Shown: piece by piece, positions 10,911 to 63,537 of the stretch | How positions within the stretch are numbered: position 1 is the first letter of the stretch | Layout: every line of letters starts with the position of its first letter | IMG/VR virus record: IMGVR_UViG_3300028888_001839 | Span: 185,001-249,000 of that record | From: a virus | Taxonomy: Duplodnaviria; Heunggongvirae; Uroviricota; Caudoviricetes | DNA: 64,000 bases | Direction: 5' to 3' (one strand) | Program-made: the position numbers and the translations under genes | Notes under the pieces: generated by a model | The model's input: only the letters and a program-made list of their open reading frames with translations | Told to the model about the DNA's origin: nothing | The model's database searches: none

Positions 10911-10918
10911 ATTTTATC

Positions 10919-11159: not shown

Positions 11160-11163
11160 TTTT

Positions 11164-43078: not shown

Positions 43079-43173
43079 GCAGCAACAATTGACGGTTTTA
43101 TAGTTCGATCTCCTCATCAACTATCTCCTTCTGTTTCCGTATCGGCATTTGGTGAAAATGACGATTTCGGAAT

Positions 43174-43632: not shown

Positions 43633-43654
43633 CGAAGGCAAGGAGACCAGAAAG

Positions 43655-44440: not shown

Positions 44441-45654
44441 TGAGTAAATGGCCAGAAACATACGAAGAGGTCAAAGCACTATTTCTTCGGAGGGGGTGTG
44501 TCCTTCTTTCAACTAATTACCAGGGATTGCACTCAAAGTTGGAGTATATAGCCTCTTGTGGTCATAAATGTACAGTAATAGCCTACAACTTTTTCAGGGG
44601 GGCTGGAACTTTATGTAGAAGATGTAACCCTAGTTGGAAAAGGAGACATAAATGTATTCCAATAGAGAAATTACAAGAAGAATATGAGTTGGCTGGGTGT
44701 AAATTATTATCAAGTTCATATTGCGGTAGTCTCGGATATCTAGTTTATATTGCACAATGTGGACACCAACACAAGATGCCGTATTATTGTTTCCATAGAG
44801 GTCAAGGGCGAAAATGTCCCAGATGTGCAGGTGGGGTGCGAAAAACTTTAGATGAAGTAAGGGAATTATTTCTGCGAGAAGGGTGTCAACTACTATCAAC
44901 AGAATACAAGTGGAATAGACAAAAGGTAGATTACATTGCTCAGTGTGGTCATCGTCATACTATCAAAGCCTTAGCTTTCTTTGAAGGAGAGGGGCGGTTA
45001 TGCCCAAAGTGCCAGAAAAAAGAAGATAGTGATAAGCGAATTAAATACACAGAAAAAGATCAGCAAGATTTATTGAATAGTTTTGGATGTAAGTTGATTC
45101 TTCCAGCGAGAACTACAAATGACAAAATGTTGTATGTGGCAAAATGTGGGCATCAAGTATCAATGCGTATTGAATTTTTCAAGCAGGGATATGGCCACGT
45201 ATGTAAAAAGTGTTACCAGAAATGCATATCTCTTGGTGAAAGAGCGGTTAAGATAGTATTGGACAAACTTAATATAGACTATGCACCTCAATATGTAATA
45301 CACACGGCACCAGGTAAAAGGCAACGCCTAGATTTCTATATCCCATCTGAAAGAATTGCAATAGAATTTAATGGACGGCAACACTATGAAGAAGTCCATT
45401 TCTTTCACAGACATAGAAACGGCAAGAATACATATGATTTTGAATATTCAAAGAAACAAGATGAGAGAAAAAGGGAATGGTGCATAAATAACGCCGTGCA
45501 TCTAATCGAAATAGACGGAAGAATATGGACTCACGATAAGACAAACAAAGACGAGTTTGAGAATTATCTGAAAAAGGAGATTTGCAATGGGAGATTCAAA
45601 AACCTACATTCCCTACGGTCATGTCCGCATTCAGTGCAAGGGATGCGGTGCTAA
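44440..45654 (+). CDS. protein with four tandem CGH-type zinc-ribbon repeats and a C-terminal DUF559 (Vsr/PD-(D/E)XK-like) endonuclease domain
   Basis: Repeats of about 60 aa each containing (A)xCGHxxxx...CxxC; C-terminal RLDFYIPSERIAIEFNGRQHYE matches DUF559. Confidence 0.5.
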   Translation: MSKWPETYEEVKALFLRRGCVLLSTNYQGLHSKLEYIASCGHKCTVIAYNFFRGAGTLCRRCNPSWKRRHKCIPIEKLQEEYELAGCKLLSSSYCGSLGYLVYIAQCGHQHKMPYYCFHRGQGRKCPRCAGGVRKTLDEVRELFLREGCQLLSTEYKWNRQKVDYIAQCGHRHTIKALAFFEGEGRLCPKCQKKEDSDKRIKYTEKDQQDLLNSFGCKLILPARTTNDKMLYVAKCGHQVSMRIEFFKQGYGHVCKKCYQKCISLGERAVKIVLDKLNIDYAPQYVIHTAPGKRQRLDFYIPSERIAIEFNGRQHYEEVHFFHRHRNGKNTYDFEYSKKQDERKREWCINNAVHLIEIDGRIWTHDKTNKDEFENYLKKEICNGRFKNLHSLRSCPHSVQGMRC

Positions 45655-45772
45655 CTACTTGGTCGGGCAGAGAGACTTGAAGTACAAATCCGTAGCCAAC
45701 AACGGATACTACCCATGCGACAAATGCGGGTCGCATGACACGACATGGGATTTCCGCAAGATTGATGATTAA
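45587..45772 (+). CDS. small zinc-ribbon protein (overlaps 3' end of previous gene in another frame)
   Basis: 61 aa, CKGCG...CDKCG, AAGGAG RBS. Confidence 0.35.
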   Translation: MGDSKTYIPYGHVRIQCKGCGANYLVGQRDLKYKSVANNGYYPCDKCGSHDTTWDFRKIDD

Positions 45773-45783
45773 GGAGGTTTCCA

Positions 45784-46626
45784 ATGAAATCATATTACCA
45801 GTTCTGCGAAGACGAACAGGTTAGGCTCAAGGTGGAAGGGATGCCTGTCCATAGGTTCTTTGCACCTGAAGGATTTATGCTATGGGGGCTAGAGCCAAAG
45901 AGCGGAAACTACAAGGGCTATGCGCAGATAGTTGATATGCCGATAGATGAGTTCTTAGGTTTGGCAGAGCCTATACCCGAAGACGATGAGAAACGTCATG
46001 CACCGCAGGAAGAGTTCAAGAAGGATGTTCTTGCAGGCAAGCCGACAAAGTGGGACATTCCATATCTCTTATGCAAAGAGAATGAGGACGGAATCTGGAA
46101 GGTGATAGGACATGATGGACGGCATCGCGGAATGCTGCTTAAGTCTCTCGGCTTCTCATCTATGCCAGTTCTACTGCAGATGCCCGATGCAGAGTTAAAC
46201 GAAGAATTGCTGCCAGAGATTCTATGGAGCCAGAACGACAAGGCGGTTGATAGGGAGAAGGACTACTATCCTTTCCCCGTCACGGAAGACAACTTCATGC
46301 AGCCGTATGTTGCCGTAGGTGATGGAGTTGTTGTTGTAGGAAGTAAGGATAACGGAATGACCATCGCTATGGACGCCATTGAGTATGGGCAGCAATGCGA
46401 CAGCAAGAAGTTTCTTAAAGACTACATGGGGGAAGTGGCACAAGAAGTTGAAACGGAAGACAGGTTAGACGGAAGAACTTTCTCTTCTCTCGGCAAGGCA
46501 CCGGATTCTTGCATAAAAGCAAAAAAGAACTTTGCTAAGAACTTTGTGCCGAATGTCCCATACCGTAATGATAACACGATGCCTGCTAGCACACTTAAGG
46601 AATATCTCGCAAAGAAAGGGAAATAA
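45784..46626 (+). CDS. hypothetical protein
   Basis: 280 aa, AAGGAGG RBS. Confidence 0.5.
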   Translation: MKSYYQFCEDEQVRLKVEGMPVHRFFAPEGFMLWGLEPKSGNYKGYAQIVDMPIDEFLGLAEPIPEDDEKRHAPQEEFKKDVLAGKPTKWDIPYLLCKENEDGIWKVIGHDGRHRGMLLKSLGFSSMPVLLQMPDAELNEELLPEILWSQNDKAVDREKDYYPFPVTEDNFMQPYVAVGDGVVVVGSKDNGMTIAMDAIEYGQQCDSKKFLKDYMGEVAQEVETEDRLDGRTFSSLGKAPDSCIKAKKNFAKNFVPNVPYRNDNTMPASTLKEYLAKKGK

Positions 46627-46694
46627 GAAATCAGAATCTCGAATCAATGCAAGTTGGCATATATTGGAAGAAGAGAAAGCAAACGGAGGATTCT

Positions 46695-47045
46695 ATGATT
46701 CGCTTCATCGAAGGACAGCCGGCTACGATAAAGGTGACAGTTTCTAGTTCTATCGACACTACTGGATTTTCGGTCTCACTTATCATCGGAGCAGAGACCA
46801 AGTCCATCAGTTCTATCAAGGATGGTGGTATATATTTTGTGGATTTCTCTGCGTCTGACATAGAGGAAGTCCCTCAAAAACCAATATACGGGACTATTCA
46901 AGTTCTCGATTCGAATGGTGATTTGTACCAGAAGATGCTAGTAGAGGTCGTGAAGGTGGGTGCAGAGACACAGACCTTGCAGCAGACGTCAGACACATTG
47001 CCAATAGTCATTGCGGCTAATTGGGTAGGGAAAAACAGCGTATGA
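46695..47045 (+). CDS. hypothetical virion-associated protein
   Basis: 116 aa, GGAGGA RBS; precedes fibre-like genes. Confidence 0.4.
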   Translation: MIRFIEGQPATIKVTVSSSIDTTGFSVSLIIGAETKSISSIKDGGIYFVDFSASDIEEVPQKPIYGTIQVLDSNGDLYQKMLVEVVKVGAETQTLQQTSDTLPIVIAANWVGKNSV

Positions 47046-47107
47046 GTGTGTAGAGAGTTTCCATTCTGATTAAGGCATGTTGAACAATTAAAATTACGGG
47101 AGGCATT

Positions 47108-47974
47108 ATGGCTTTTGTTAATCCAGATTCAGGTCCATATCTGTCGCATCTCACGATGAAGAACACCACTTATACAATTAAGGATAAGTGGGCAAGGGAA
47201 GAAATCGCTGAAATAGAGGCTGCGATTGCAGGAGGGGTCAGGTTTAGAGGTGTATTGGCTTCAGGGGCTTCAATCACAGAGGGAGAATCAGTAAAAGACC
47301 TTGATGTGGTAGATGGCTCTTCTACAAAGACCATAACAGCCGCCCAACAGACGGACGGAGATTTATTCATATACAATAACGGCACGAGCAATCTTGAATT
47401 CATAGTCAGCAATGGAACTTATTCTGAGCTTGGTTCGACAGGAAGCCTAGGGACATTCGCATTTGCAGATTCAGGTTCTGGTTCGTGTGAAGTCCCCATC
47501 TCGTCTGCGATTACTTTTAATCCATTAACTCCAAACGTTACAAAGGGTACTCTTGACATAACATATCAGTCTGGCTCTACCTCTATTACGACAACACCGA
47601 CAACGGCTTCTGGGTCTTTTTCACCTGCGGCGATAACGATAGCAGCCTCGTCAGTGACGATAACTCCAACGAAAGCTTCATTTACAGCCCTAACGGGAGT
47701 AACTTATAATTCTGAGACAGCCACTTTAACAATAACGGATGGAACATCTGATGAATACTGGACTGGATATTCGGCTGCTCAGGCGGCTTCTCAAATGGTA
47801 ACTCCAGCAGCAAACCAGACAATTAGCGTGACATACGACAAAGTGAACTCGGCTTCTATTTCTACTATAACTGGAGTTAGTCTGATAGGGGACATATCTG
47901 TTACCGCATCTACTCCGACTGCGACGATAACTAACCCAACAATAACGGTCACGGTTTCGCCTGTGTCTAGCTAG
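47108..47974 (+). CDS. Ser/Thr-rich fibre-like structural protein
   Basis: 288 aa, very T/S-rich C-terminal two thirds (TPTTASGSFSPAAITIAASSVTITPT...). Confidence 0.45.
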   Translation: MAFVNPDSGPYLSHLTMKNTTYTIKDKWAREEIAEIEAAIAGGVRFRGVLASGASITEGESVKDLDVVDGSSTKTITAAQQTDGDLFIYNNGTSNLEFIVSNGTYSELGSTGSLGTFAFADSGSGSCEVPISSAITFNPLTPNVTKGTLDITYQSGSTSITTTPTTASGSFSPAAITIAASSVTITPTKASFTALTGVTYNSETATLTITDGTSDEYWTGYSAAQAASQMVTPAANQTISVTYDKVNSASISTITGVSLIGDISVTASTPTATITNPTITVTVSPVSS

Positions 47975-48220
47975 TGGAAGAATAAAACCAAAGAAAGGAC
48001 ATTTTCGGAATGGCTAGGAAGATAGTCAGGCGGGAAGCATCTAAGAGAGATACTATCCCTAATGTCAATTTTCTTACAATAGGAGGATTGACTGTATCTT
48101 TAGGTGATATTAGGAAATCAGACTTTTCTTCCATAAGGAACCCAAAGGCATCTGTCAAGAGCTGCCAAGACACATTGATTGCGATACTGGACGTGCTTAG
48201 AGGATTTTCGGAGACGTAAG

Positions 48221-49558
48221 ATGTCAAAGTTTTTAGTAAAATCTATATTCTTGGTAGTATTGTTTTCGAAGGGCACCACAATGCTTTTTGGTGGACTTGT
48301 AGATACGGAAGGGAATGTGGCAACGAACCAGACTCTCCTTGGGGACATAGACATGGGGGTCGGGACTTTAGGTGACTTGTCAACGTTTATCGCTCCTTAC
48401 TATTGGAATGTGTCTAATGCCGCAATGACAGCGGAATCGAAGATTTCGACGGAATCTCAGAACAGCACCAACTTCACTATGTTTGTAATAGGGAAGTTTG
48501 CAGAGACGGGAACTGTAGCAAATGCTACTTATGCAACAGAAGCAGGAAGTGCTAGGGATGCATCTACTGCGGGGACGGCAAATTTTCTTGCAAGTAAAGA
48601 CGATGGGGCTGAGCAATACGATGCAACAGACCTGATTAGAGAATCGACAAATGCGGCAAACCATTCTGTATCGGAATTTGCAAGGACCAACTCGGTTCTT
48701 TCGGGAGGACCCTATCTGACGGAGCATCAGTCTTTAGAGCCGTCTACAAACTATACTGACTATGCGGTTATAGAACTTGCACGGACAAATTCTGTTCTTG
48801 CTAACGGTCCGTATGTGCAGTCTGCCAGCATGACCAATACGGTCAGGGACATCGTTACCAATACGGTGACAATCGGCTATACGGATTGGGTATATAGCGG
48901 AAACACGACTGTAGGAGTTACCTATACGATAAACGTGACTGAAAGCGGTTCTGACTATGTGTTTACGCTATACAATCCTTCCGAGATTGGGTCTGTGACT
49001 ACTAATATCCTCCACCCTACAAGGCTAGAATTTACTGGAGTTGGAATCATTGCAGAATGTACACCAATTATACGAAACGTCAATGGGCTTGCAATGTATT
49101 CTGATGTACAGGCTTTGGAGACTAAGATAGACACGATGGATACGTCTTACTATCGTGTTGTCGGGATAACAAACAAGAACCAGTCCGTGCAGTTCGTAGA
49201 GACGGATGCCAATACAACCTCCCTTCAAATTCTTATGCCTGAAAGCGGCATGACAAAAGACTGGCTTGTTTATGTTAAGGCACTGACAAATCTGACGCTA
49301 GTTCTGCCGCCAGCGGACTATTGGGTTGTCAACGAATCAGTCACCAACGAGATTCCTCCGCTAGTTCCTACCGCATTGTACTTCTCGCAGATTTCAGACA
49401 ACACGTATAGCATCGGCAGACAGGAACTGATACCAATAACGGTTCTCTCACAGAGGGAAATAGAGAATCAATTAATAAGGGCGAAGATGAGGAAGGCGGG
49501 GTTGGCTTCTAGGAATGCAAAGAGAACAGTCACGACTTCAAAAGGCATAGTGAAGTAA
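48221..49558 (+). CDS. putative tail fibre / structural protein
   Basis: 445 aa, N-terminal hydrophobic segment, T/N/S-rich. Confidence 0.45.
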   Translation: MSKFLVKSIFLVVLFSKGTTMLFGGLVDTEGNVATNQTLLGDIDMGVGTLGDLSTFIAPYYWNVSNAAMTAESKISTESQNSTNFTMFVIGKFAETGTVANATYATEAGSARDASTAGTANFLASKDDGAEQYDATDLIRESTNAANHSVSEFARTNSVLSGGPYLTEHQSLEPSTNYTDYAVIELARTNSVLANGPYVQSASMTNTVRDIVTNTVTIGYTDWVYSGNTTVGVTYTINVTESGSDYVFTLYNPSEIGSVTTNILHPTRLEFTGVGIIAECTPIIRNVNGLAMYSDVQALETKIDTMDTSYYRVVGITNKNQSVQFVETDANTTSLQILMPESGMTKDWLVYVKALTNLTLVLPPADYWVVNESVTNEIPPLVPTALYFSQISDNTYSIGRQELIPITVLSQREIENQLIRAKMRKAGLASRNAKRTVTTSKGIVK

Positions 49559-50340
49559 TGGCAAATGAAAGTTGCACAAGACGGCAGATGATGACTGGAT
49601 GTATGGCGGCGGTAGGATATGGTCTTGCCGCAAAGGCATCTTTAATACATTCTAACATTGGGGCAAGGCATCTTTTACATGAGTATGTTCCAATGGATGA
49701 GATGGTAGAGGTAGATTGGATAGCTTCTGATGGAGAGGCTTGGATAGATACTGGTTTTGTCCCTTATAACGGGTTCTATCCGTTCTCTATGGAGTGTGTA
49801 CTGGGTACTAGGTTTGTTAACACTCCTTTCTTTGGATGCAGTAGTTCAAGCGAAATTAGTAATTGGATTGATTCAAAAACGTTGATTTTTGGGTTTGGGA
49901 TGGCTCGCAATGACCGCAGGTATGCATGCAAGTCAAAGGTTCAGAGAAATTGGGTGTGCTGGGGAACGTCTTATACTGGAAACGAGTATTATGATGGTGA
50001 GATGCATGAGGTGGATGTCAATGCGGACAGCGGGGCTGGATCCTCTGATGGGTATAGTCTTTATGTGGATGATGTCAAGATTCCACTGCAAGTGATATAT
50101 TTGGGGTCTCAAGTCACCACTAATTCTGAATCTCTAGGTTTGTTTTGTACTAAAGCTGATGGTAAAGCATGTCAAGTGACAGACCCCTCTGTGGGATTCA
50201 AATTGCGCACTTTTGCCATAGGGAATGTTTTATTGAAGGCTGTCCGCATTGGAGATTTCGGGTTCATGTACGATGTCAACAGCGGCAATCTCTTTGGAAA
50301 TAACGGAGGTGGACGAATTCTTTTTGGTCCAGACTTGTGA
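49558..50340 (+). CDS. hypothetical secreted protein
   Basis: 260 aa, N-terminal hydrophobic segment; lacks the LamG C-terminal motif of the downstream family. Confidence 0.45.
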   Translation: MANESCTRRQMMTGCMAAVGYGLAAKASLIHSNIGARHLLHEYVPMDEMVEVDWIASDGEAWIDTGFVPYNGFYPFSMECVLGTRFVNTPFFGCSSSSEISNWIDSKTLIFGFGMARNDRRYACKSKVQRNWVCWGTSYTGNEYYDGEMHEVDVNADSGAGSSDGYSLYVDDVKIPLQVIYLGSQVTTNSESLGLFCTKADGKACQVTDPSVGFKLRTFAIGNVLLKAVRIGDFGFMYDVNSGNLFGNNGGGRILFGPDL

Positions 50341-50348
50341 GGGACGAT

Positions 50349-51173
50349 ATGCGGATAACCATAGCCATATTTGCGGCACTTGTGCTGACATGCTTCTCCA
50401 AGCCAATCTCATCTTCTGTTGGGGCACGTCATGTGTTCGCGGCAGAAGCGAATGAGAAGACCTATACTGCGGCGGACTATGTGCAAGATGGACTCATATG
50501 CATGTGGGATGCCATAGAGAATGCAGGATGGAAGACGCATAGTCCAGATGCATCAGCATGGATGAACTTAGCCGATGGCAGGCAGTTCAACATTATCAAG
50601 AATACTGATTCAGACTATGCTTGGACAGATGTCTCATTCGTAAGGACAGCTGTATCGTATGGATATTTTCTTGCAGACTACACAGATGAGCTGCAGCAAC
50701 CAGTAAGAGACGGAACATTTACTTTTGAGATTGTGACATCATCGCCAGTACAGTCTTCGAATTGGCAGACTCAAGTCATCAACATTTGCCAAGCCAAAGA
50801 TGTATCATTATATAGCAGAGCAATATGTTGTCTATATAGGAGAGAAGACAATGGGCGAATTGATTGTCCATCACTCTCTACATACTGGGCCTCTAATATG
50901 TTTGCTGGCTATTATGCTCCAACACGTGAAGCTCTAGTTACTGCTGCCATCAGCCTTGATGGCAAGAACATGTACTGCTATGCAAATGGAGAACTGATTC
51001 GGCCTCCTTCGTTTACTCCAAACCAGGATTTGGAAGGAATAATAGTAAGGCTTGGATCTACGGCATATGGGTTTAGAGGCTCTTACCACTGTCTGAGAGT
51101 CTACAACAGGCCATTGAGCGCAAGCGAGATAAAGAAGAACTACAAGATTGACAAAGAAAGGTTCGGGCTATGA
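50349..51173 (+). CDS. secreted LamG/ConA-like jellyroll protein, family member 1
   Basis: Signal peptide; N-motif DYVQDGLICMWDAIENAGW; C-motif CLRVYNRPLSASEIKKNYKIDKERFGL (LamG_3-type signature). Confidence 0.6.
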   Translation: MRITIAIFAALVLTCFSKPISSSVGARHVFAAEANEKTYTAADYVQDGLICMWDAIENAGWKTHSPDASAWMNLADGRQFNIIKNTDSDYAWTDVSFVRTAVSYGYFLADYTDELQQPVRDGTFTFEIVTSSPVQSSNWQTQVINICQAKDVSLYSRAICCLYRREDNGRIDCPSLSTYWASNMFAGYYAPTREALVTAAISLDGKNMYCYANGELIRPPSFTPNQDLEGIIVRLGSTAYGFRGSYHCLRVYNRPLSASEIKKNYKIDKERFGL

Positions 51174-51838
51174 GGAACGGATTCGCATTCTCTATCTTGT
51201 TTTCTTCTTTAGCAATCATCGGCGGATGTTGCAATTGTAAGGGGAAAATAGAATACAAGTATTTTCATGATGCAAACCTCGTGGCATTTTATGATACAAC
51301 TGGAAAGCAAGTAGGAGTAGCAAGAATGTTAAAGAACAAAAATTACTGTAAGCCTACAGAAGACCATCGGGGCATAGAGTATGCGCCTGTGATTCTTCCC
51401 AAAACAATGGGTGCGCCTACGGAAGACGATTATAACGAGGGGGGATGGTTCCGCAATGCGATACAGCCGCCTTCCCCGCCAGAGGGGCAGTATGTCGCAT
51501 CTACGTCGTATTGGTATGACGAAGAAGAGAATGCCATTGTTGCCAGATACGACTATGACGACATACAGTATGGGATAGATGACTTTGATGCCGCCATGGA
51601 AGAACATCTGAGGGTGGAAAGGGAAGCACGAGGATATACGACTAGAGAGCCTGATTCTTATTTGACTTCTAATCACCCAAGATGGAAGAGAGATGCGGAA
51701 GACTGGGTGGCTCACCGTGATGCGGTCATGGAGTATGCGTTGCAGCTGATAAACGACGTGCAGCAAGGGCTTAGACCTCCGCCCACGATGGATGAGTTCA
51801 AGGCGGGGCTTCCTGTTATACATTGGAGCATTGAATAG
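51170..51838 (+). CDS. hypothetical lipoprotein-like protein
   Basis: N-terminal SILFSSLAIIGGCC. Confidence 0.4.
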   Translation: MRNGFAFSILFSSLAIIGGCCNCKGKIEYKYFHDANLVAFYDTTGKQVGVARMLKNKNYCKPTEDHRGIEYAPVILPKTMGAPTEDDYNEGGWFRNAIQPPSPPEGQYVASTSYWYDEEENAIVARYDYDDIQYGIDDFDAAMEEHLRVEREARGYTTREPDSYLTSNHPRWKRDAEDWVAHRDAVMEYALQLINDVQQGLRPPPTMDEFKAGLPVIHWSIE

Positions 51839-51851
51839 ACGGAGAACAGAA

Positions 51852-52562
51852 GCCATGCATAGGAGAGAGTTTATTGCTGGAATGATTTCCTCCTTGGCGG
51901 GGACGGCGGCAGTTGCAGATGCCGCTCGGTCTGCCATAGGTGCGAGGAACGTGTCATTGTCTGGAGGAAGCGGAGCTGATGCGGAAGCCAAGCTCCAGAA
52001 CTGGTTGGATTTCTTTGCGAACGGGTATTTGATGACACAGTTTGAGGATGATTCTATTGTAGAACTTGGCGTGCCTCTGTTCCAAGCAAATGCAGGTATG
52101 TCTCATATTTCTATTCTATTTTCCAGTCTCAAGAGGGTTCTGGCTAGAAACGTGTTTTATGGTAGCAGAATAGTAAGTTTGTCATGTCCGATGCTGACGG
52201 AAGTATATGGAATGCAACAATTTCAGGGATCGTCGTACTTAGAAACCTTAGATTTCCCATCTTTAGCCTACATAGAAAATTTTAGTTGGTGGTTTTGGAA
52301 TTGTCCAAGACTAAAAGCCATTAATTTAGGGCAAGTAACAGAAATTCATGGTGCATCGAATGTCTCTTTTGGGCAAGTTGATTCTGCTTTAGAGGATGTA
52401 TATCTTCTCGCAATGAATACTTCAACATTACTCTCTTATACGGGGATGCTAACTCCCGCGACAACGGGCAATTATACACCGCATCAGATAGTGTTCCATT
52501 GCGCCGATGGGAACGTTGTGTGGAGCGACGATGCTAACAACTGGGTTAAGATACAAGTTTAA
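51852..52562 (+). CDS. hypothetical secreted protein (possible Tat signal)
   Basis: MHRREFIAGMISSLAGTAAVADA N-terminus. Confidence 0.4.
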   Translation, partial: AMHRREFIAGMISSLAGTAAVADAARSAIGARNVSLSGGSGADAEAKLQNWLDFFANGYLMTQFEDDSIVELGVPLFQANAGMSHISILFSSLKRVLARNVFYGSRIVSLSCPMLTEVYGMQQFQGSSYLETLDFPSLAYIENFSWWFWNCPRLKAINLGQVTEIHGASNVSFGQVDSALEDVYLLAMNTSTLLSYTGMLTPATTGNYTPHQIVFHCADGNVVWSDDANNWVKIQV

Positions 52563-52581
52563 CTAGAAGGAGAGTTTAGGC

Positions 52582-53358
52582 ATGAGGCTTTCCATATCTC
52601 TCATGATCGCATGTGTTGCCCTATTTGCAATGGGATATGTAGAGAGGGCAATCGTTGCCGCAAGGCAGGCTTCATTCTGGAACCATTCAAATGAATACAT
52701 ACCTGCTAGTGAATATGTTCGGGACGGGTTGCATACGATGTTCGACGCTATAGAGAACGTAGGTGCGGGCGTTCACGATTCTTCTTCTCTATTATGGGTA
52801 GACCTTATAGGCGGTCTTGAAATGGAGATGTCGGCTGCGGCATGGACAGATTCCTCGTATTCGTGTGCAGGAGTAAATAGTGGACACGTCTATTGGAAGA
52901 CGATGCCAGAGTATCCATACTATCCAAAATACATGACTATAGAAGTAGTGTTCAAAAATTGCTCTGGGAATGTGTTTGGAAGAAATTCTCTTGCCTTTGG
53001 AGGACGGGAGTATCAGCGAATGAATATCGTCAGAAGTACCATTGGCAATGTCTGGGCCATGTCTTACCAAAAAGACGGATTCATTTTCGAGGATGCAGGA
53101 ACGATTTCTGCCTTGTTTCAAGATACTTCTTCTGCTTCGGAGAGGATTATATTCGTAAATGGAACACTAGCAGAGACAACAGATGCTTACAAGGAGGGTT
53201 TCGGTATCTCTGGTGTTCAGGCAATTTCTGTTAATCCTAGAGGTGATTACCCGTTCAACGGCGAAATCTGCTGCATAAGGCTATATACGAGGAGACTGGA
53301 TGCGGAAGAGGTCGTCAGAAATGCTGAAATAGACAAGGCGAGGTTTTCGTTGCCATGA
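52582..53358 (+). CDS. secreted LamG-like protein, family member 2
   Basis: SEYVRDGLHTMFDAIENVG ... CCIRLYTRRLDAEEVVRNAEIDKARFSLP. Confidence 0.6.
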   Translation: MRLSISLMIACVALFAMGYVERAIVAARQASFWNHSNEYIPASEYVRDGLHTMFDAIENVGAGVHDSSSLLWVDLIGGLEMEMSAAAWTDSSYSCAGVNSGHVYWKTMPEYPYYPKYMTIEVVFKNCSGNVFGRNSLAFGGREYQRMNIVRSTIGNVWAMSYQKDGFIFEDAGTISALFQDTSSASERIIFVNGTLAETTDAYKEGFGISGVQAISVNPRGDYPFNGEICCIRLYTRRLDAEEVVRNAEIDKARFSLP

Positions 53359-54086
53359 AACAAGCAGTAATTTTTATTCTATCTGTAATCTGCATGGCTT
53401 CCGTTGCTAGACAGATAAAGTCAGCATCGGCGGCCAGGAAGGCTATTTCAGCCATCGATTGTGAAAGAGATGAGATTCCCTATGTCACGTCTGGACTAAT
53501 TGCGATGTGGGATGGCGAATGGAATGCTGGAATTGGGCAACACGATTCAGATGCAATAATTTGGAAAGACCTTGTTGGAGATTTCGACTTGGTAATATAT
53601 GGGTCTGTGTTTCATAATTTCATAAGGAACTCTAACACCTCAGCAGCTGAAGCTACTGGAACGATTGAAGGGATAGGCACGATAGAGGTATGTTATCGGT
53701 ATTCAGGTTCAAAGAATTCATCTTATGGACTATTGTTCTATTCAGGACCGATAAATGCCACGCGCCTTGGGCTGGTTTTATATCTAGATGGATTCCAGAC
53801 TTTCTCAAATGTATATTGGAAATACTCAGATGTGCGGTCTCATTCTTTGATGACGATATCAGCCACCAAAGAATTGTGTTATGTAGATGGTACTCCTCTA
53901 GATCCAATATCACGTGCAACAGACCAGTGGAACAACTACGGGCATGTCGGAATTGGAGGAAGAGCATGGCAAAACACATGGCAGACATACGGTGATTGGC
54001 ATTGCATTAGGATATACAATCGTACTCTTTCAGAAGAAGAGATAGCTTTTAATTCTTCTATAGACAAAGAAAGGTTCGGTCCATGA
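53355..54086 (+). CDS. secreted LamG-like protein, family member 3
   Basis: PYVTSGLIAMWDGEWNAG ... CIRIYNRTLSEEEIAFNSSIDKERFGP. Confidence 0.6.
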   Translation: MKQAVIFILSVICMASVARQIKSASAARKAISAIDCERDEIPYVTSGLIAMWDGEWNAGIGQHDSDAIIWKDLVGDFDLVIYGSVFHNFIRNSNTSAAEATGTIEGIGTIEVCYRYSGSKNSSYGLLFYSGPINATRLGLVLYLDGFQTFSNVYWKYSDVRSHSLMTISATKELCYVDGTPLDPISRATDQWNNYGHVGIGGRAWQNTWQTYGDWHCIRIYNRTLSEEEIAFNSSIDKERFGP

Positions 54087-54913
54087 GAATGGAATTTTTT
54101 ATAGCCTCATTCCTTTTGATGGGGATATGTTTTGGTAGTCCGACCCGCTCTTCTATAGGAGCAGTTCATTCAAGGTTCTCTTCTGTTGCCGAAGAAAGTG
54201 TTTCTGCTAAGGATTACGTTCAAGACGGGTTAGTTGCAATGTGGGACGGCATCTGGAACGCCGGATGGGGTCGGCATAACGATCATGCAAAAATCTGGAA
54301 GAACTTGATGGAGGATTCAAGACTAGATTTTATCATTGATGGAATGGTTGTAGGAGATAATTTTGTCAACTCGAATCGTTTGGCAAGTGAAACTGATGCA
54401 ATACTTCCACAGACTGACTTCACAATAGAAGTCGTTGGTTGCAACTCTGATGTGATCGGCGCGAATAACCAGAACACGCCATTGTTAGCATATGGCGCCG
54501 CTGGCAACAACCAATTTGGGTTTGGCTTCACACGTTCATGGGCAATGATGCTCTTCTACTCCTATGGGACGACTGACGGAAAAAATGATGCTTGGGCATA
54601 TGGACAAGCATATGAAGAAGATTCTTTCAGTATTCCACGTAGTTGGAGTGGTCAAAGCGCTATGTCTGGCGGGCGCCTATTCTACAAGAATGGTGTTAGA
54701 TTTGTGAATGATTCTTGGCGTCCTCGTCAAGGAACATACTATCCATCTGATGCTAATTCTTTGAAAATTGGATATGGTGAAGAAGCTGACATGTCGCGAG
54801 CAGGTGCTAGTGGAAAACGAACTTACTATTGCATCAGGTTCTACAACAGGTGTCTTTTGGATGACGAAGTGAAGTACAATTGCAGCATAGATGAAGAAAG
54901 GTTTGGGCTGTAA
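54083..54913 (+). CDS. secreted LamG-like protein, family member 4
   Basis: DYVQDGLVAMWDGIWNAGWG ... CIRFYNRCLLDDEVKYNCSIDEERFGL. Confidence 0.6.
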   Translation: MRMEFFIASFLLMGICFGSPTRSSIGAVHSRFSSVAEESVSAKDYVQDGLVAMWDGIWNAGWGRHNDHAKIWKNLMEDSRLDFIIDGMVVGDNFVNSNRLASETDAILPQTDFTIEVVGCNSDVIGANNQNTPLLAYGAAGNNQFGFGFTRSWAMMLFYSYGTTDGKNDAWAYGQAYEEDSFSIPRSWSGQSAMSGGRLFYKNGVRFVNDSWRPRQGTYYPSDANSLKIGYGEEADMSRAGASGKRTYYCIRFYNRCLLDDEVKYNCSIDEERFGL

Positions 54914-54915
54914 GG

Positions 54916-55683
54916 ATGACGAGACGAGACTTCATAAAATTGAGCATTCCCTTCGCCTTGCCAAGCGGGACGGCAGACGGGGCATTAACACGGTCGCTGA
55001 TAGGCGGCAACTTGATAGGCAGGGGTGCGGCTTATGTCCCTTCCGAATATTCGGCGATAGACTATGTGCAGGACGGGCTCATCGCAATGTGGGATGGCAT
55101 CGAGAACGCAGGGTGGGGGACTCACGACCCGAACGCGACGACGTGGAAGAATTTAGTAGGGAAAAATTACGATATAAACTGCGGCAACACGGGCTACTTT
55201 TCGGGCGATGCTTTTATTTTTACCGGAGCCGCAGGAACTATTCAAAATTGGGAAATTGGCAGCGAAAGCATTGGGAATTTGTCCGTCTGTGGACTTTCTG
55301 AACTCAATTCGTTTTTCGCTTTTACATCGAGTCGGTATTGCGGCAGAATGTTTGCAATTCTTCCGACGAGTAATAGAGGTTTCCAATTCCAGACAGGTCA
55401 TGCCGCTATGTTCCAGGACTGGTACTCTGATCCGTGGAGTGTCGCGGCGAATTACGACACAAGACTGTCAGACACGTTCTACAACGGCGAGCTGAAACCC
55501 CATACAGCCGGAACTTCCACATGGGCTTCTTCGTCTTATGGCGCATATATTGGTCATTATGGCGCCAGCCAATATCCATACAGAGGCAGAATCTACAACC
55601 TCCGCCTCTACTCCCGCGCCCTCACCGCCGCCGAAATCGCGGCCAACTACGCAATCGACAAAGCGAGGTTCAATTTACCATGA
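54916..55683 (+). CDS. secreted LamG-like protein, family member 5
   Basis: DYVQDGLIAMWDGIENAGWG ... NLRLYSRALTAAEIAANYAIDKARFNLP. Confidence 0.6.
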   Translation: MTRRDFIKLSIPFALPSGTADGALTRSLIGGNLIGRGAAYVPSEYSAIDYVQDGLIAMWDGIENAGWGTHDPNATTWKNLVGKNYDINCGNTGYFSGDAFIFTGAAGTIQNWEIGSESIGNLSVCGLSELNSFFAFTSSRYCGRMFAILPTSNRGFQFQTGHAAMFQDWYSDPWSVAANYDTRLSDTFYNGELKPHTAGTSTWASSSYGAYIGHYGASQYPYRGRIYNLRLYSRALTAAEIAANYAIDKARFNLP

Positions 55684-56435
55684 AATACAAACTCATTGCT
55701 ATATCGTTCATGATGCTAATCCTTTCATGCCTTGCCAACGTTGTAAGGTCTGTCAATGGCGCGGTTCATTCAAGGTTCTCTTCTGTTGTCGAGGAAAGCG
55801 TGACAGCGAAGGACTACATACAGAACGGTCTGATTGGACATTGGGATGGCATTGAAAATGTTGGATACGGAAGACATGACAGTGATTCAAGTGAATGGAT
55901 AGACCTAACTGGGTCTGGAAACAACATGACGCTAACTAAAGGCGCTTATTTTTTAGAAAACCGTTTTGAGACGGGCACGGCAAATTCCCCATTTGCAAAG
56001 GTAAATGAACTCGTCAGGCTACCAATATATTCCGTTGAGTTCATTGTTGACGCATCTCGGACGTCAGGTTTTCAACTGTTCGGGAAGTGTTCTTCTTCTA
56101 AAACGAAAATATTTTGGTTTGGCATAAGGGCTAATGATACAATAAATTTTTGGAGCAATGGAGATTGCATGCAGGGAACTAGAAAAGGTATAAATAGTTA
56201 TGCTGTGTCAATCGAAGGAAATTTTGTTAGGTTATTCATGAATGGGGAAGAGATGCCTAATCTCGGGCCAGGACTGACTGGAGTAAACGAAGCAAATATA
56301 ACGATTGGAATTGGTTCAGGAGTATCATATCGTGATTATTCAATCTATTCGATTAGGTTATACTCTCGTCCTTTGTCACCAGATGAGATTGCACTTAATC
56401 ACTCAATTGATCAAATAAGGTTCAATGTGCCATGA
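55680..56435 (+). CDS. secreted LamG-like protein, family member 6
   Basis: ATG overlapping the upstream stop; DYIQNGLIGHWDGIENVGYG ... SIRLYSRPLSPDEIALNHSIDQIRFNVP. Confidence 0.6.
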   Translation: MKYKLIAISFMMLILSCLANVVRSVNGAVHSRFSSVVEESVTAKDYIQNGLIGHWDGIENVGYGRHDSDSSEWIDLTGSGNNMTLTKGAYFLENRFETGTANSPFAKVNELVRLPIYSVEFIVDASRTSGFQLFGKCSSSKTKIFWFGIRANDTINFWSNGDCMQGTRKGINSYAVSIEGNFVRLFMNGEEMPNLGPGLTGVNEANITIGIGSGVSYRDYSIYSIRLYSRPLSPDEIALNHSIDQIRFNVP

Positions 56436-57238
56436 GAAACATTCTAGCACTAGTTTTCATCGGAGCATCGATAAGCATTTTTGGTTCTCCCGTTCGCTCT
56501 GTTGTTGGGTACAAGCATATTTCAATGTCTAATGGCAGAGGTGAAGTTTCCTATTCCGCGAAGGACTATGTTCAAGACGGTCTGGTAGCCATGTGGGATG
56601 GTATAGAGAATGTGGGATGGGGAATACATGATGCAAATACAACGACATGGATAGACCTTGTAGGGGGAAGGACTTTCTTGCTCACACATGGAGTCGTGAC
56701 GCCGAATGCCGTGTCTGTGTTGGGGCAGATGTCATCGTCTAAAATTTCATACGATACTACGAAAACCTATTCCGTGTTCCATACATGCAAATTTTCCAAC
56801 CCGACACACATGCGAGCAAACGTATTCATGTTATTGACGACATCTACGGCATTTTCCGTTGGGGCGTATTCATTCGATGCGAATGTTCCTGTTAGGTTGT
56901 TTCGCGCTGTCAATTGGAAGAATGTCGTAACTGCTTCAACATGGCCTGACAATGATATTTATGCAGGGCAGTTCGGCATCACCTATTCCGTATTGAAAAG
57001 TGGGGAGTCCCCTAAGAATATAGTTGTGCTATATCTTGATGGAGTGGAAGTGTATAGGCTGGAAGGGGCGGCATCTTCTTTCGGATATGCGCTTGGGGAC
57101 AGCGGCAACTATTATATCGATGTGTCAAGCTCACAACTTGAACAAGAGGTATACAATATCAGGCTGTACGACAGGGAACTTACGTCCGACGAGATTGCGG
57201 CGAACTATGAAATAGACAAAGTGAGGTTCGGGCTATGA
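56432..57238 (+). CDS. secreted LamG-like protein, family member 7
   Basis: DYVQDGLVAMWDGIENVGWG ... NIRLYDRELTSDEIAANYEIDKVRFGL. Confidence 0.6.
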   Translation: MRNILALVFIGASISIFGSPVRSVVGYKHISMSNGRGEVSYSAKDYVQDGLVAMWDGIENVGWGIHDANTTTWIDLVGGRTFLLTHGVVTPNAVSVLGQMSSSKISYDTTKTYSVFHTCKFSNPTHMRANVFMLLTTSTAFSVGAYSFDANVPVRLFRAVNWKNVVTASTWPDNDIYAGQFGITYSVLKSGESPKNIVVLYLDGVEVYRLEGAASSFGYALGDSGNYYIDVSSSQLEQEVYNIRLYDRELTSDEIAANYEIDKVRFGL

Positions 57239-58011
57239 AGAGAGTAATATTTATAGTAGTATCCTCGATTTGGGTTATGGGCATTGGCTATCCAACAAGA
57301 AGCAATGTAGGTGGAGCTCATATCTTACATGGAGCAACAGAAGATGAGCAAAAGTTCACTGTTTCTGACTATGTTCAAGATGGCCTTGTGGCGGTATGGG
57401 ACGGCATTGAAAATGCTGGGTGGGGTGTACATGACAGACAAGCAACAGAATGGAGAGAACTGATAAATGGGACTTATACTGTTCTTGGAAGGAAAGGATA
57501 TTTTGACGGAAATGCAATGTGTGTTCCATTAAGAAGTCAGATACCCCTTGTTTCCGTCCAATTTGATAATCTAACGGCAAGAACAATAGAATATTGTTTT
57601 GGCGATTTCGGTAACAACCTAAATATTGAGAGGAATTTCGTATACTTGGAAGATAACCGAAACAATAGTAGTTTCTCAATGCAACTGAATTGGGAGCGGA
57701 AATGGCGAATAACCACGAATGTGGCAGGTACGCATACCAAGGATATTTCTATGGAAGAGATTGGACCATTAGAACTTATAGACATGATGACTTATTCTTT
57801 TTCTCAAGGGCTTACCTCCAAAACCTATGTTAATGGTGTTTTTTCAAAAGAGCTCCTTAAAAGGCCATTTACTTCGTTCACAAGCATTGGACTTGGTTTG
57901 CGCACAGGAATGTCACAAAAGGCATATTGCATTAGAGTGTATGATAGAGTATTGACAGATGAGGAAATCGCCTTCAACCATGATATAGACGTAGAAAGGT
58001 TTGGCAATTAA
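57235..58011 (+). CDS. secreted LamG-like protein, family member 8
   Basis: DYVQDGLVAVWDGIENAGWG ... CIRVYDRVLTDEEIAFNHDIDVERFGN. Confidence 0.6.
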   Translation: MKRVIFIVVSSIWVMGIGYPTRSNVGGAHILHGATEDEQKFTVSDYVQDGLVAVWDGIENAGWGVHDRQATEWRELINGTYTVLGRKGYFDGNAMCVPLRSQIPLVSVQFDNLTARTIEYCFGDFGNNLNIERNFVYLEDNRNNSSFSMQLNWERKWRITTNVAGTHTKDISMEEIGPLELIDMMTYSFSQGLTSKTYVNGVFSKELLKRPFTSFTSIGLGLRTGMSQKAYCIRVYDRVLTDEEIAFNHDIDVERFGN

Positions 58012-58025
58012 GCCTGCTGCTTCCT

Positions 58026-58652
58026 TTAATTCTCGAAATCTATCTTACGTTTCGGGTTGTATTCAAACACCCTTTGGAAGGCATCAGATTTCAAAAAAGA
58101 TTCCGCAAGGTAAACCTTTTTCTTTATCAGTCCAAACATGGCAGTCTTTCTAATTATCTTCACATTGAGTTCTTTGTAGCATTCCGCACATAGTTCAAAA
58201 CAATATAAAGCACTCGTGTCTCTCTTAAACCCAAAGTCATAAGGGACATCATTCTCTACGAACTCCAAGGCTCGTTTAATAGCGAGAGTTTGTCCTCCAC
58301 TTGGGCGGAGGATGCAAATTCTGTCACATTCGCAGAAGTCAACAACGTTGATTTTGGAAACTCCTTTTGCGACTGCATGCACTATGGTATCGTCACCCAC
58401 ATAGATTGCTCCGTGAGAATAGTCGCCGGGGACGAACATTCCGTCGAGATACATGGAGAACCCTCTTAATATGACATCTCCCGGCTGGAGCAAGTTTCTA
58501 ACTTCAAGAATCTTTTCCCCAGGCATTGAGAAAACTGTAGGGTCATAAATAATAAAGAGCGGCCATTTGAATACCTTGATATTACCAAACCATGTTAGAA
58601 AGGTAGCCTGTAGCCGATAAAAGAACTTTTTCATGTCAATTATTTCCCTCAT
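58026..58652 (-). CDS. NlpC/P60-like (permuted papain fold) peptidase, candidate cell-wall hydrolase
   Basis: Only substantial minus-strand gene; GDVILRG...GDYSHGAIYVGDDTIVHA and a downstream Cys (CFELC) consistent with a permuted His/Cys papain-like fold. Confidence 0.5.
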   Translation of the reverse strand: MREIIDMKKFFYRLQATFLTWFGNIKVFKWPLFIIYDPTVFSMPGEKILEVRNLLQPGDVILRGFSMYLDGMFVPGDYSHGAIYVGDDTIVHAVAKGVSKINVVDFCECDRICILRPSGGQTLAIKRALEFVENDVPYDFGFKRDTSALYCFELCAECYKELNVKIIRKTAMFGLIKKKVYLAESFLKSDAFQRVFEYNPKRKIDFEN

Positions 58653-58723
58653 TGTGCCTAGTCATTGCCAAAACATTTCTTATGCAAAGGAAAAATAAAA
58701 ACAAAAAAATGTGAATACCCACT

Positions 58724-58752
58724 TGCCATGGCACAGTATTCGTGATATTATA
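58724..58752 (+). promoter_or_regulatory. candidate sigma70 promoter TTGCCA-17-TATTAT in the divergent intergenic region
   Basis: Position upstream of 58788 gene; weaker match than the conserved family. Confidence 0.3.
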
Positions 58753-58787
58753 GTATCTGTTCTGGGAAAAATAGGAAAGAAAAGCAA

Positions 58788-59336
58788 GTGGAAACTAAAG
58801 AATCTGAGAGTTTGGTAGATGTGTTCTCCTGCGAAAGGGTGACTCCGTGGTCTCTTGTTTATGATGCGGCAAGAGCTACGCAGGGCAAGCATATATCTCA
58901 TAAGGAGCCGACGGACGAATGGAAGCGTAAGGCGATGCTATCTCCTCATTCACCGATAAGATGTCTACAGTTCTTCATACAGATGAGAATACCATATTTT
59001 GTGTCAACCCATCTTGTGAGGCACAAGATAGGAATAGAAAACTTTGTAGGGTCACAAAGGAATGATAGGCAGGACAATTACGATAGAAGAGCAGCACGAC
59101 AGGACACTCCAGTTCTACATTCTATGCTAGTAAATGCAGATGAGCTTCGCTTTATATCTCGTAGAAGACTATGTATGCAAGCGGCAAAAGAAACCAGAAC
59201 AGTGTGGAAAGCCGTTGTGGATTCGATAGGAAAGATCGACCCTATAGTAGCAGAGTTCTGTCAGCCTGAGTGCTGGTGGACTGGCGAAAGATGCCCAGAA
59301 TTCAGACCTTGCGGTAAGTGCAAAGCGATGATGTGA
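58788..59336 (+). CDS. ThyX-like (FAD-dependent thymidylate synthase family) protein, short form
   Basis: SPHSPIRCLQFF...STHLVRHKIGIENFVGSQR resembles the ThyX RHRx7SxR signature region; only 182 aa. Confidence 0.45.
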   Translation: METKESESLVDVFSCERVTPWSLVYDAARATQGKHISHKEPTDEWKRKAMLSPHSPIRCLQFFIQMRIPYFVSTHLVRHKIGIENFVGSQRNDRQDNYDRRAARQDTPVLHSMLVNADELRFISRRRLCMQAAKETRTVWKAVVDSIGKIDPIVAEFCQPECWWTGERCPEFRPCGKCKAMM

Positions 59337-59354
59337 TTGTAAAGGAGAAACACG

Positions 59355-59981
59355 ATGGAAGAGACAACGGAGAAAAATCAAGAAACTGTAGCGGCGGATG
59401 CAAATGCAAATGATGCTGCAGGACGGCTTCGCGACGAGAAGGGACACTTCCTCCCTAATCCTGACAAGAAGCCGAAGAGAACACGCAAGCAGAAAGACGA
59501 TGCGAACACCGTGAAGATTCGCATAGTGAAGGATGAAGTTCCTGCACCAGACAAGGATTACGAGGGGCGGCTAGAGGACATGAAGGAACGGACCGCAACG
59601 AACTTCATTAAGTCTGTCTGTTATCACAAGCCTCGTGTCATCAACATAGATGGGCTTCGCTACTACTCGCAGGCTGTTGTAGAGAACCTGAAACAGAAAC
59701 TTACAGATGAGCGGCTAGATGGAATAAGAGGGTTGGAAACATTGAACAAGACAATGGAAGCTCTCAAGAAAACAAGTAAGACGCTGGAAGACTGTTTTGA
59801 TTCAGCGCAGAAAGTTCGCAGGTCTCGCTTCATATGGAGGTGCATAGCTATTGCATCTTTGGCAACATTGATTTCGTTTTGCATCACTAAAGCAATAGAT
59901 AAGCGCAATGCGGAAAGGGCAATCGCAAAAGCGCCAGTTATACAGATGCCCGAAATCGGGACTCAGGTCATATCGAAGTAG
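59355..59981 (+). CDS. hypothetical protein with C-terminal transmembrane helix
   Basis: 208 aa, basic/acidic N-terminal region, hydrophobic IAIASLATLISFCI near the C-terminus. Confidence 0.45.
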   Translation: MEETTEKNQETVAADANANDAAGRLRDEKGHFLPNPDKKPKRTRKQKDDANTVKIRIVKDEVPAPDKDYEGRLEDMKERTATNFIKSVCYHKPRVINIDGLRYYSQAVVENLKQKLTDERLDGIRGLETLNKTMEALKKTSKTLEDCFDSAQKVRRSRFIWRCIAIASLATLISFCITKAIDKRNAERAIAKAPVIQMPEIGTQVISK

Positions 59982-63517: not shown

Positions 63518-63537
63518 GAATTAACCAATGAGCTTTG

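Follow-up and report, generated by a model that had tools for sequence, protein, structure and literature searches.

Introduction

The gp38 proteins of T4/T2 and the Tfa proteins of Mu and lambda are encoded by adhesin/assembly genes that lie just downstream of tail-fibre genes. The modular swapping of receptor-binding domains, in cassettes that combine a conserved N-terminal dock with an exchangeable C-terminal head, and the exported exclusion protein are both known concepts, and the phage exclusion proteins known to us are single, unrelated small proteins. Phage T5 exports a lipoprotein, Llp, by which the receptor FhuA is blocked (PMC9586334). Here, we analysed a 64,000-nucleotide (nt) stretch of a Caudoviricetes genome (IMG/VR record IMGVR_UViG_3300028888_001839, positions 185,001 to 249,000), referred to below as the window and numbered from its first letter, which carries 12 genes for signal-bearing proteins, eight of them with a LamG-type jelly-roll domain. 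With a probability of roughly 0.4, we regard this locus as an accessory island of hypervariable content whose exported, surface-binding modules most likely mask or remodel the host envelope, a function that we infer. An earlier reading of the same DNA (the original prediction) had taken the eight LamG genes for a cassette of alternative lectin or receptor-binding modules, or of host-surface effectors, in the tail region.

Predicted export leaders and the tag

The island spans 48221–58011, and each of its 12 products had a Sec, Tat (twin-arginine translocation) or lipoprotein signal-like N-terminus. Signals were called by an n-region/h-region heuristic on the Kyte-Doolittle scale, not by a dedicated predictor, and all statements on signals below are to be read in this sense. 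No such N-terminus was found in the three genes just upstream. Ten of the 12 genes share a leader composed of a signal and a tag, behind which the cargo is a LamG domain (eight genes), a putative beta module that we call X (one gene) or a putative BspA-type leucine-rich repeat (LRR; one gene). The genes are listed below with the lengths of their products in amino acids (aa); a slash separates signal and tag.

48221..49558, + strand: 445-aa protein, first island gene; Sec-type signal MSKFLVKSIFLVVLFSKG, no tag; N/T-rich, beta-rich body
49558..50340, + strand: module X protein, 260 aa; Tat signal (TRRQMM), tag HS/NIGARH, then X
50349..51173, + strand: LamG paralog 1, 274 aa; Sec signal, tag SS/SVGARH; Laminin_G_3 32.2 bits
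51170..51838, + strand: lipoprotein-like protein, 222 aa; lipobox-like ...LAIIGGC
51855..52562, + strand: putative BspA-type LRR protein, 235 aa; Tat signal (HRREFI), tag RS/AIGARN
52582..53358, + strand: LamG paralog 2, 258 aa; Sec signal, tag RA/IVAARQ
53355..54086, + strand: LamG paralog 3, 243 aa; Sec signal, tag KS/ASAARK
54083..54913, + strand: LamG paralog 4, 276 aa; Sec signal, tag RS/SIGAVH
54916..55683, + strand: LamG paralog 5, 255 aa; Tat signal (TRRDFI), tag RS/LIGGNL; Laminin_G_3 33.6 bits; protein used for structure modelling
55680..56435, + strand: LamG paralog 6, 251 aa; Sec signal, tag RS/VNGAVH
56432..57238, + strand: LamG paralog 7, 268 aa; Sec signal, tag RS/VVGYKH
57235..58011, + strand: LamG paralog 8, 258 aa; Sec signal, tag RS/NVGGAH; final island gene

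The N-termini of the eight LamG proteins consisted of a positive n-region and an uncharged stretch of 15–18 residues, in which the best 10-residue window had a mean hydropathy of 1.8–3.2. A Tat motif combined with hydrophobicity was present in the genes at 49558, 51855 and 54916, and the remaining nine genes followed the Sec/lipoprotein pattern, with Pro at position -4 of the [VIT]-[RK]-S site. The original prediction of a signal peptide on each of the eight LamG proteins was thus upheld by the heuristic, one of the eight being of the Tat type (54916).

The shared leader has two parts, a signal whose hydrophobic core is followed by the signal-peptidase-like site [AG]-x-P-[VIT]-[RK]-S, and the tag x-[IVL]-[GA]-A-[RK]-x, and cleavage would be expected after [RK]S. 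Our tag profile was built from sequences picked by a regular expression and illustrates the motif rather than giving independent evidence for it. Additional Tat leaders were found on homologues in related contigs (L010, L011, L040, L047 and L124; contigs and proteins outside the window are denoted by L and P numbers). Leader sequences drift while their hydrophobicity stays, as between P0002 and P0004, and the variants of LamG paralog 7 (P0003, 96% identity; P0004, 90% identity) likewise have an altered leader sequence of preserved hydrophobicity. Tags were more alike within a phage than between phages ([IV]GA.H in the window versus MLGA.G in L040). Relatives that lack a signal start exactly at the tag, as M-[LIM]-[IL]-[AGN]-x-R, and several Tat versions keep a Met at the tag (e.g., KS-MIAARQ). 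X modules and fusions of X with LamG likewise start with this tag.

Homology and fold of the LamG proteins

Gene calls on the source contig agreed with the eight LamG open reading frames (ORFs), which start at 50349, 52582, 53355, 54083, 54916, 55680, 56432 and 57235 and encode products of 243–276 aa. Alignment of all eight proteins showed mutual homology at 24–33% identity with 21 invariant columns, located in an N-block (Y50, G54, L55, D60, N64, G66, H70, W77 and L80), at G191, and in a C-block (R230, Y232, R234, L236, E240, N244, I247, D248, R251 and F252). The signature of this LamG subfamily is DYVQDGLxAMWDGIENxGWGxHD...W..L for the N-block and R.Y.R.L...E...N..ID..RF for the C-block. The Pfam family Laminin_G_3 (PF13385; gathering score, 27.6 bits) matched six of the eight paralogs, two above the cut-off (33.6 and 32.2 bits) and four below it (25.3–27.2 bits in three and 14.4 bits in one), and gave no match to the other two. 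Many homologues of these paralogs have a precomputed PF13385 match, and paralog 4 clearly belongs to the family though it has no Pfam match of its own.

Five of the six junctions between LamG paralogs 2 and 8 are 4-nt ATGA overlaps, and the sixth is a 2-nt gap. The ends of the LamG genes (GAC AAA GAA AGG TTC GG, at 51125–51176, 54038–54089, 54865–54916, 55632–55683 and 57190–57241) place a purine-rich GAAAGG 8–14 nt ahead of the next ATG, so that translation of the following gene may use the conserved C-terminal motif as its ribosome-binding site.

The original prediction of eight mutually homologous ORFs with conserved N- and C-terminal blocks, most of them joined by overlapping stop and start codons, was confirmed by the ORF calls and the alignment. 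The genes are not consecutive as had been stated, since 51170–51838 and 51855–52562 separate paralogs 1 and 2, and the unit is larger than eight genes, for it also takes in 48221–49558 and 49558–50340. As for the LamG_3-type C-terminal signature, the block is conserved in all eight proteins, but the Pfam model scored above its threshold in only two.

The structure of the 54916 protein was modelled with AlphaFold2 from a 112-sequence alignment (predicted local distance difference test score [pLDDT], 79.4; predicted template modelling score, 0.77). In the model, residues 1–44 are disordered and residues 45–255 form an all-beta sandwich with a closing helix at 238–252. Foldseek matched it to trans-sialidase lectin domains, domain 4 of AbnA, the Hc part of botulinum neurotoxin (BoNT) and CBM40, a family of carbohydrate-binding modules (CBMs), with E-values of 3e-7 (trans-sialidase lectin domains) to 1e-4, the probability for lectin and CBM jelly-rolls being 1.00; the solved structures nearest to the model were CBMs, and the structure search also returned many ConA-like proteins of phages. 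A sequence profile (A3) matched the CBM40 of NanA (4c1w) with an E-value of 2.3e-5 over residues 111–239 only, and a Pfam "Sialidase N-terminal" match remained below threshold (17.1 versus 26 bits). The model and its lectin/CBM matches confirm the LamG/ConA-like jelly-roll fold that the original prediction had proposed. They also indicate that the conserved "ends" are the first strand with its loop, and the last strand with the helix, of the LamG fold. The putative binding site may be the invariant polar N-block (D60, N64, H70, D71 and W77) or the variable core.

Array turnover by cassette exchange

The strain L046, which was obtained from the same sample as the window version, has 98.3% identity to the window over 4.6 kb, from 45045 up to 49631. 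Beyond this point the two arrays differ, and a second shared block (88% nt identity) runs from the N-block of LamG paralog 3 to that of paralog 4 (53497–54270). Two exchange sites could be delimited:

49558..49631, + strand: recombination breakpoint within the signal-peptide coding region; L046 then has a LamG module where the window has X
55063..55681, + strand: exchanged cassette of LamG paralog 5; 92.3% nt and 89% aa identity to the signal-less L001:1182-1800, ratio of nonsynonymous to synonymous substitution rates (dN/dS) 0.57

At the first site, L046 and the window share the first 13 codons of the Tat leader (MANESCTRRQMMT), and divergence begins in the h-region. At the second, identity begins exactly at the DYVQDGL block and stops at the stop codon. 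L001 is a phage contig with 64% GC that has nothing else in common with the window; the paralog 5 cassette, as judged from these sequences, has recently been exchanged with an unrelated phage.

Seven of the eight paralogs were closer to a relative in another phage (34–89% identity) than to their siblings in the array (24–32%). The nearest relative of paralog 1 was the signal-less P0015 (49% identity), paralog 3 had 55–56% identity to the signal-less P0069 and P0050, and paralog 2 had 83% aa identity to L047 5250-6026 (dN/dS, 0.22). Signal-bearing and signal-less types were interleaved by relatedness, 23 of 59 signal-bearing proteins having a signal-less nearest neighbour. The dN/dS values of ortholog pairs were 0.22–0.57 for LamG cassettes and 0.07–0.57 across the island genes; this purifying selection indicates that the island genes are functional, and that flanks and cassettes differ in history.

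Array composition also varied between related phages. The sister phage L011 (96.6-kb contig), in which the flanks have 37–75% aa identity to those of the window, has an island of two X and three LamG genes, all with Sec/Tat leaders. On the 192-kb contig L040 (the same protein is present on another contig, of 276 kb) there are a 435-aa signal-bearing protein, five LamG genes, about four X genes and a homologue of the lipoprotein-like protein. L124 (Ga0310786_10017813, 8.6 kb, 54% GC) carries eight signal-bearing LamG genes, the lipoprotein gene and another tagged cargo of 186–232 aa.

Sequence comparison shows that homologous recombination, acting where leader and N-block are conserved, rebuilds the array on top of old paralogy, and the LamG cores differ because the paralogs are anciently diverged lineages. 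Simple local tandem duplication as the sole source of the array was rejected, since seven of the eight paralogs have closer relatives in other phages. Accordingly, of the two diversifying processes named in the original prediction, recombination was seen directly in the breakpoint and the shared cassettes, and local tandem duplication alone did not hold. Its suggestion of alternative binding modules fits the cassette replacement between 98%-identical strains and the cassette with 92% nt identity in an unrelated phage. The pattern of conserved ends and hypervariable core was seen in the alignment but is not specific to this array, as it recurs throughout the subfamily (1,323 representatives).

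Relatives in smaller phages and in bacteria

An exhaustive HMMER search with the LamG subfamily returned 23,901 cluster representatives at E≤1e-3, of which 1,323 remained at E≤1e-30. The top-scoring members are proteins of 800–7000 aa with 2–8 or more domain copies, mostly with a plain signal peptide and none with the tag. In the giant proteins that we scanned, the subfamily domain is joined to Flg_new_2, and in one case to an N-terminus of the extracytoplasmic function (ECF) sigma type. This protein, P0140, has an ECF sigma-70 N-terminus (r2 and r4_2) followed by LamG-subfamily repeats, and the N-termini of P0160 and P0231 look similar; such proteins may be sigma/anti-sigma glycan sensors or merged gene calls.

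In a scan of GTDB, contigs with the LamG family were labelled Kiritimatiellae at nine of 14 loci and Lentisphaerae at one of 14, and the family proteins there had two or three LamG domains, some together with Flg_new_2 or GDPD. The X subfamily was also found in secreted proteins of Kiritimatiellae/Lentisphaerae. Because of these contig labels, which come from metagenome-assembled genomes (MAGs), the host of the phage is probably a Kiritimatiellae bacterium. No described Kiritimatiellae phage and no relevant literature were found in the collections searched. A megablast search with window positions 40000–64000 and a tblastn search with the 54916 protein gave no match among 50,697 GenBank phages.

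Among the 120 best single-domain relatives, approximately 43 were classed as signal-bearing and 67 as signal-less. The signal-less genes are located in structural regions of phage contigs of 25–75 kb, and in many cases their start overlaps the stop codon of a large fibre gene. They come directly after, or a few genes past, large fibre-like genes (760, 1134 and 1399 aa). The large genes near LamG genes on four contigs were as follows.

L049: 1399-aa collagen-like protein with many tail-fibre PHROG matches; P0015 begins at the stop codon of this gene
L048: 760-aa fibre-like protein beside a signal-less LamG gene
L044: 1134-aa protein with a tail-fibre PHROG match, near an internal virion protein
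L042: 1386-aa protein upstream of LamG, without a tail match

Arrays of at least five copies were nearly all signal-bearing and were carried on contigs with 43–54% GC (eight copies in the window, eight in L124, at least six in L046, and five each in L040 and L010). Signal-less genes occurred in one or two copies, on contigs averaging approximately 60% GC.

Other island members and flanking genes

The 445-aa protein encoded by the first island gene had 97% aa identity in strain L046 (dN/dS, 0.13), and a signal-bearing homologue (29% identity) starts the island of L040. It matched nothing in Pfam, PHROG, NCBIfam or PDB. Module X has conserved ends (VEVDWIASDGEAWIDTG ... GFMYDVNSGNLFGNNGGGRILFGPDL), and a word-indexed search found 15 homologous proteins. 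X is fused N-terminally to LamG in L004, L006 and L042, and carries a signal-less tag in L006, L009 and L017. Its AlphaFold2 model, built on a 15-sequence alignment, had a pLDDT of 40, too low for fold assignment.

The lipoprotein-like gene is a conserved core member of the island. Its dN/dS was 0.07–0.08 against L046 and L047, and homologues lie inside the arrays of L040 (7166–7675), L046 (6132–6800), L047 (3184–3852) and L124 (979–1650), always behind the first few modules; the L040 copy is without the signal/lipobox part. No family match to its product was found in Pfam, PHROG or NCBIfam. The product of 51855–52562 scored 22.1 bits against Pfam LRR_5 (PF13306), below the cut-off of 27.7. 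L047 encodes two Tat-LRR_5 homologues of it, with unmarked precomputed LRR_5 matches, and a fusion of LamG and LRR_5 is present in phage contig L013. Searches of the island proteins against PHROGs and NCBIfam gave nothing informative.

On its left side, the island is bordered by an HNH gene and genes of no matched family, and on its right side by a convergent Peptidase_C92 gene, followed by ThyX and RusA genes. The flanking features are as follows.

47108..47974, + strand: left-flank gene, 288-aa S/T-rich product without a signal; the "fibre-like" gene of the original prediction
58026..58652, - strand: Peptidase_C92 (YaeF/YiiX permuted papain-like) gene, convergent with the island; Pfam 65 bits, NCBIfam weak; the "lysin" of the original prediction
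58788..59336, + strand: ThyX-like gene, conserved right flank; Pfam Thy1 29.6 bits

The 288-aa protein has a homologue at the same position in L011 and no family or PDB match; the 286-aa gene at the corresponding position of L040 is a candidate counterpart by position. None of the genes upstream of the LamG array (products of 280, 132, 288 and 445 aa) matched a tail family. The ThyX-like gene also comes after LamG genes in L011 and L042. From this gene content, the neighbourhood of the island is accessory and not a tail module. The original prediction had placed the genes in the tail region, after fibre-like genes and before the lysin. This placement was not supported: the flanks are HNH, ThyX and RusA genes, the upstream genes are without a tail-family match, and the supposed lysin is a YiiX-type Peptidase_C92 gene on the opposite strand that is missing at this locus in the sister phage L011.

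Across 45000–59500, promoter-like sites (31 versus 29 expected) and terminator-like sites (8 versus 10 expected) were at chance level. Rfam detected no RNA family, HEARO RNA included, in window positions 43000–59000. In L011, HEARO RNAs (RF02033, 115 and 118 bits) at 4606–4849 and 6907–7148 flank the 47108 homologue at the left island edge, and the gene to the left of the L040 island is RRXRR+HNH (IscB-like).

Possible functions of the island

During infection, the island proteins would cross the inner membrane, where the signal would be cut off and the tag exposed, and the modules would then attach to glycans on the envelope or surface of the infected cell. Their most likely role would be to mask or remodel phage receptors, so that superinfection by competitors with the same binding modules would be blocked, or progeny would not be lost on debris. 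We prefer this envelope model because Tat/Sec signals persist across many diverged homologues, because copy-number expansion goes with the exported form, and because the genomic neighbourhood is accessory rather than structural. Virions of tailed phages assemble in the cytoplasm, and the presence of Sec/Tat signals throughout the island speaks against incorporation of its products into virions there.

Several points weigh against the envelope model. The case for export is made entirely from sequence heuristics. The tag is conserved past what signal peptidase would need and elsewhere heads tail-fibre-adjacent proteins; there are thus hints in the sequences of a docking function that could serve virion attachment. 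Neither the lipoprotein nor the tagged proteins showed homology to known superinfection-exclusion proteins in Pfam, PHROG or NCBIfam. Furthermore, the host call comes from MAG labels alone, and of the contig, which is at least 213 kb long, the analysis covers 64 kb; the phage's own tail module and any signal-less copies would lie outside.

Receptor interference is a less likely account. By analogy with retroviral Env-mediated superinfection resistance, the phage would gather the receptor-binding modules of its competitors (up to 92% nt identity), add Sec/Tat leaders, and export them as decoys that occupy the receptors from within. The exposed tag may also let exported modules arm virions only at lysis.

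In the main rival account, which we consider unlikely but to which the tag still lends some weight, the modules are receptor-binding cassettes of the virion, as the original prediction had suggested. They would then be alternative fibre tips or adhesins that dock on the fibre by the tag, with N-termini that do not serve export or with pick-up by virions at lysis. Signal-less relatives with the same tag do lie immediately downstream of tail-fibre genes, and the predicted cleavage would bare the same N-terminus as in these signal-less proteins; however, all ten tagged genes of the window have Sec/Tat signals, such signals are kept in L010, L011, L040, L046, L047 and L124, and array expansion is confined to the exported type. 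Tags that resemble each other more within a phage than between phages would suit docking on a fibre, and LamG proteins do occur in virions of cyanophages (BFVD match Q5GQW3, a virion structural protein of S-PM2). A conserved S/T-rich 288-aa gene stands just upstream of the island, yet the upstream genes match no tail family, and the neighbours are HNH, ThyX and RusA genes and not a tail module. This reading was therefore not supported: every member has an export signal, and tail-fibre adjacency is found only in signal-less relatives.

More doubtful still is a benefit to the host, in which the genes would be morons whose secreted glycan-binding modules join the host surface repertoire while infection is long or chronic, and could there help to capture polysaccharides, to adhere or to sense glycans. 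The LamG and X subfamilies are the same as in giant secreted Kiritimatiellae proteins, some of them joined to GDPD, Flg_new_2 or ECF-sigma domains, but the phage tag is missing from the bacterial proteins, and cassettes are traded with tail-fibre-adjacent genes of phages, not with host genes. While the nearest solved relatives are CBMs, fast strain-level turnover of the array suits an arms race better than a metabolic role. The island does lie in an accessory region beside mobile elements; there was no sign of lysogeny in the window, however, and no integrase among the scanned ORFs.

Targeted hypermutation of a lectin scaffold, as by a diversity-generating retroelement (DGR), is highly improbable as the source of the variable core: conserved ends and a variable middle look like DGR targets at first sight, but, in line with the original prediction, no reverse transcriptase was found among the 40 larger ORFs scanned in the window and no template/variable-like repeat in the window (no repeat was more than 77% identical, paralog DNA being 60–77% identical even in the conserved blocks), variation is distributed over the entire core, and each paralog belongs to a separate old lineage common to other phages.

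Genome setting

The window is identical to part of the 213-kb contig Ga0310697_10000023 (JGI 3300032030) from a rumen metagenome. The phage genome is thus at least 213 kb long, and further copies of the contig reach up to 252 kb. The window also encodes RecE, RecT, a portal protein, a primase, NrdD, an RNA ligase, methyltransferases, RusA, a TnpB element and approximately 15 tRNA genes, a gene content that fits a jumbo phage. The portal gene lies at 5560–7662, and the gene for an E217_gp28/head-completion (collar) protein occupies 63528–64000 and extends past the window; together, the two show a scattered placement of structural genes, which is common in jumbo phages.

The tRNA genes form a dense array at 9775–11753, in which ARAGORN called 15 genes, one with a four-base anticodon (ggaa; 11678–11753). 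Rfam confirmed 12 of the 15 and added one at 10532–10602. The TnpB/IS605 OrfB gene (OrfB_IS605 and Cas12f1-like TNB domains) at 33020–34228 has 74% aa identity to its copy in L010, and in the related contig L042 the LamG genes are surrounded by three copies of TnpB. A caspase-like Peptidase_C14 gene (60 bits) at 43655–44440 has 67% aa identity in L011. At 1679–3640, a RecT domain comes before a LAGLIDADG_3 segment and a P-loop region whose PHROG matches are to terminases and primases; this may reflect a fusion that contains an intein or the merging of gene calls.

Implications

If the exported reading is true, such islands would make up a large and rapidly evolving class of accessory genes through which phages act on the surface of their hosts. 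Their building blocks would be the same modules that lie next to tail-fibre genes in other phages, where they presumably serve in host recognition. It would follow that each exported module should block phages bearing its signal-less twin. Similar islands can be sought by means of the common leader and tag. In addition, the locus provides an example of domain-level cassette exchange, with mapped breakpoints, between rumen phages that differ widely in GC content and genome size and whose probable hosts are uncultured Kiritimatiellae. LamG-type proteins were common among phages in the structure search, and export signals should be checked before a phage LamG protein is annotated as a "tail fibre".

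Comparison with known systems

A recombining island of up to eight or more single modules with predicted Sec/Tat export, a post-cleavage tag in common with tail-fibre-adjacent proteins, and a conserved lipoprotein was not found described, as a combination, in the literature searched, nor did a relevant paper turn up there on signal-bearing LamG proteins of jumbo phages or on homologues of binding proteins that mask receptors. Its parts can each be compared with described systems. Like PF13385/ConA-like jelly-rolls, the window proteins have a beta-sandwich, the first strand typical of the family and the C-terminal "R-hYxRxL-xxE-I" motif; they differ in being stand-alone modules of approximately 205 aa behind an export leader, with no catalytic domain and with a DYVQDGL signature of their own. 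The profile match to 4c1w may relate them to the sialic-acid-binding modules of CBM40, for which attachment to a sialidase would be expected; the window proteins stand alone.

The giant surface proteins of Kiritimatiellae/Lentisphaerae contain the same LamG subfamily and the X module. Those proteins are 800–7000 aa long, with 2–8 or more copies, a plain signal and no tag, whereas the phage genes encode a single module with the tag. The DGR targets of the BPP-1 Mtd type are likewise ligand-binding proteins of phages with a conserved scaffold and variable positions. In contrast to them, the window proteins have a LamG fold and not that of a C-type lectin, no reverse transcriptase or template repeat is present in the window, and diversity comes from old paralogy and recombination.

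The comparison with gp38 and Tfa applies to the signal-less relatives, which overlap the stop codons of tail-fibre genes and combine a conserved short N-terminus with a swappable binding domain. As in those systems, cassettes are traded between unrelated phages. A sequence relation was not detected, and the window copies differ in their Sec/Tat signals, in their number (eight or more) and in having no recognisable tail-fibre neighbour. With Llp of T5, and with Cor and Ltp, the island would share, as a functional analogy, a signal or lipoprotein leader and action at the envelope of the infected cell, and it also contains a conserved lipoprotein. There is no homology to these proteins, and the single small lipoprotein of those systems contrasts with the multi-gene, recombining family of binding modules that makes up the island.

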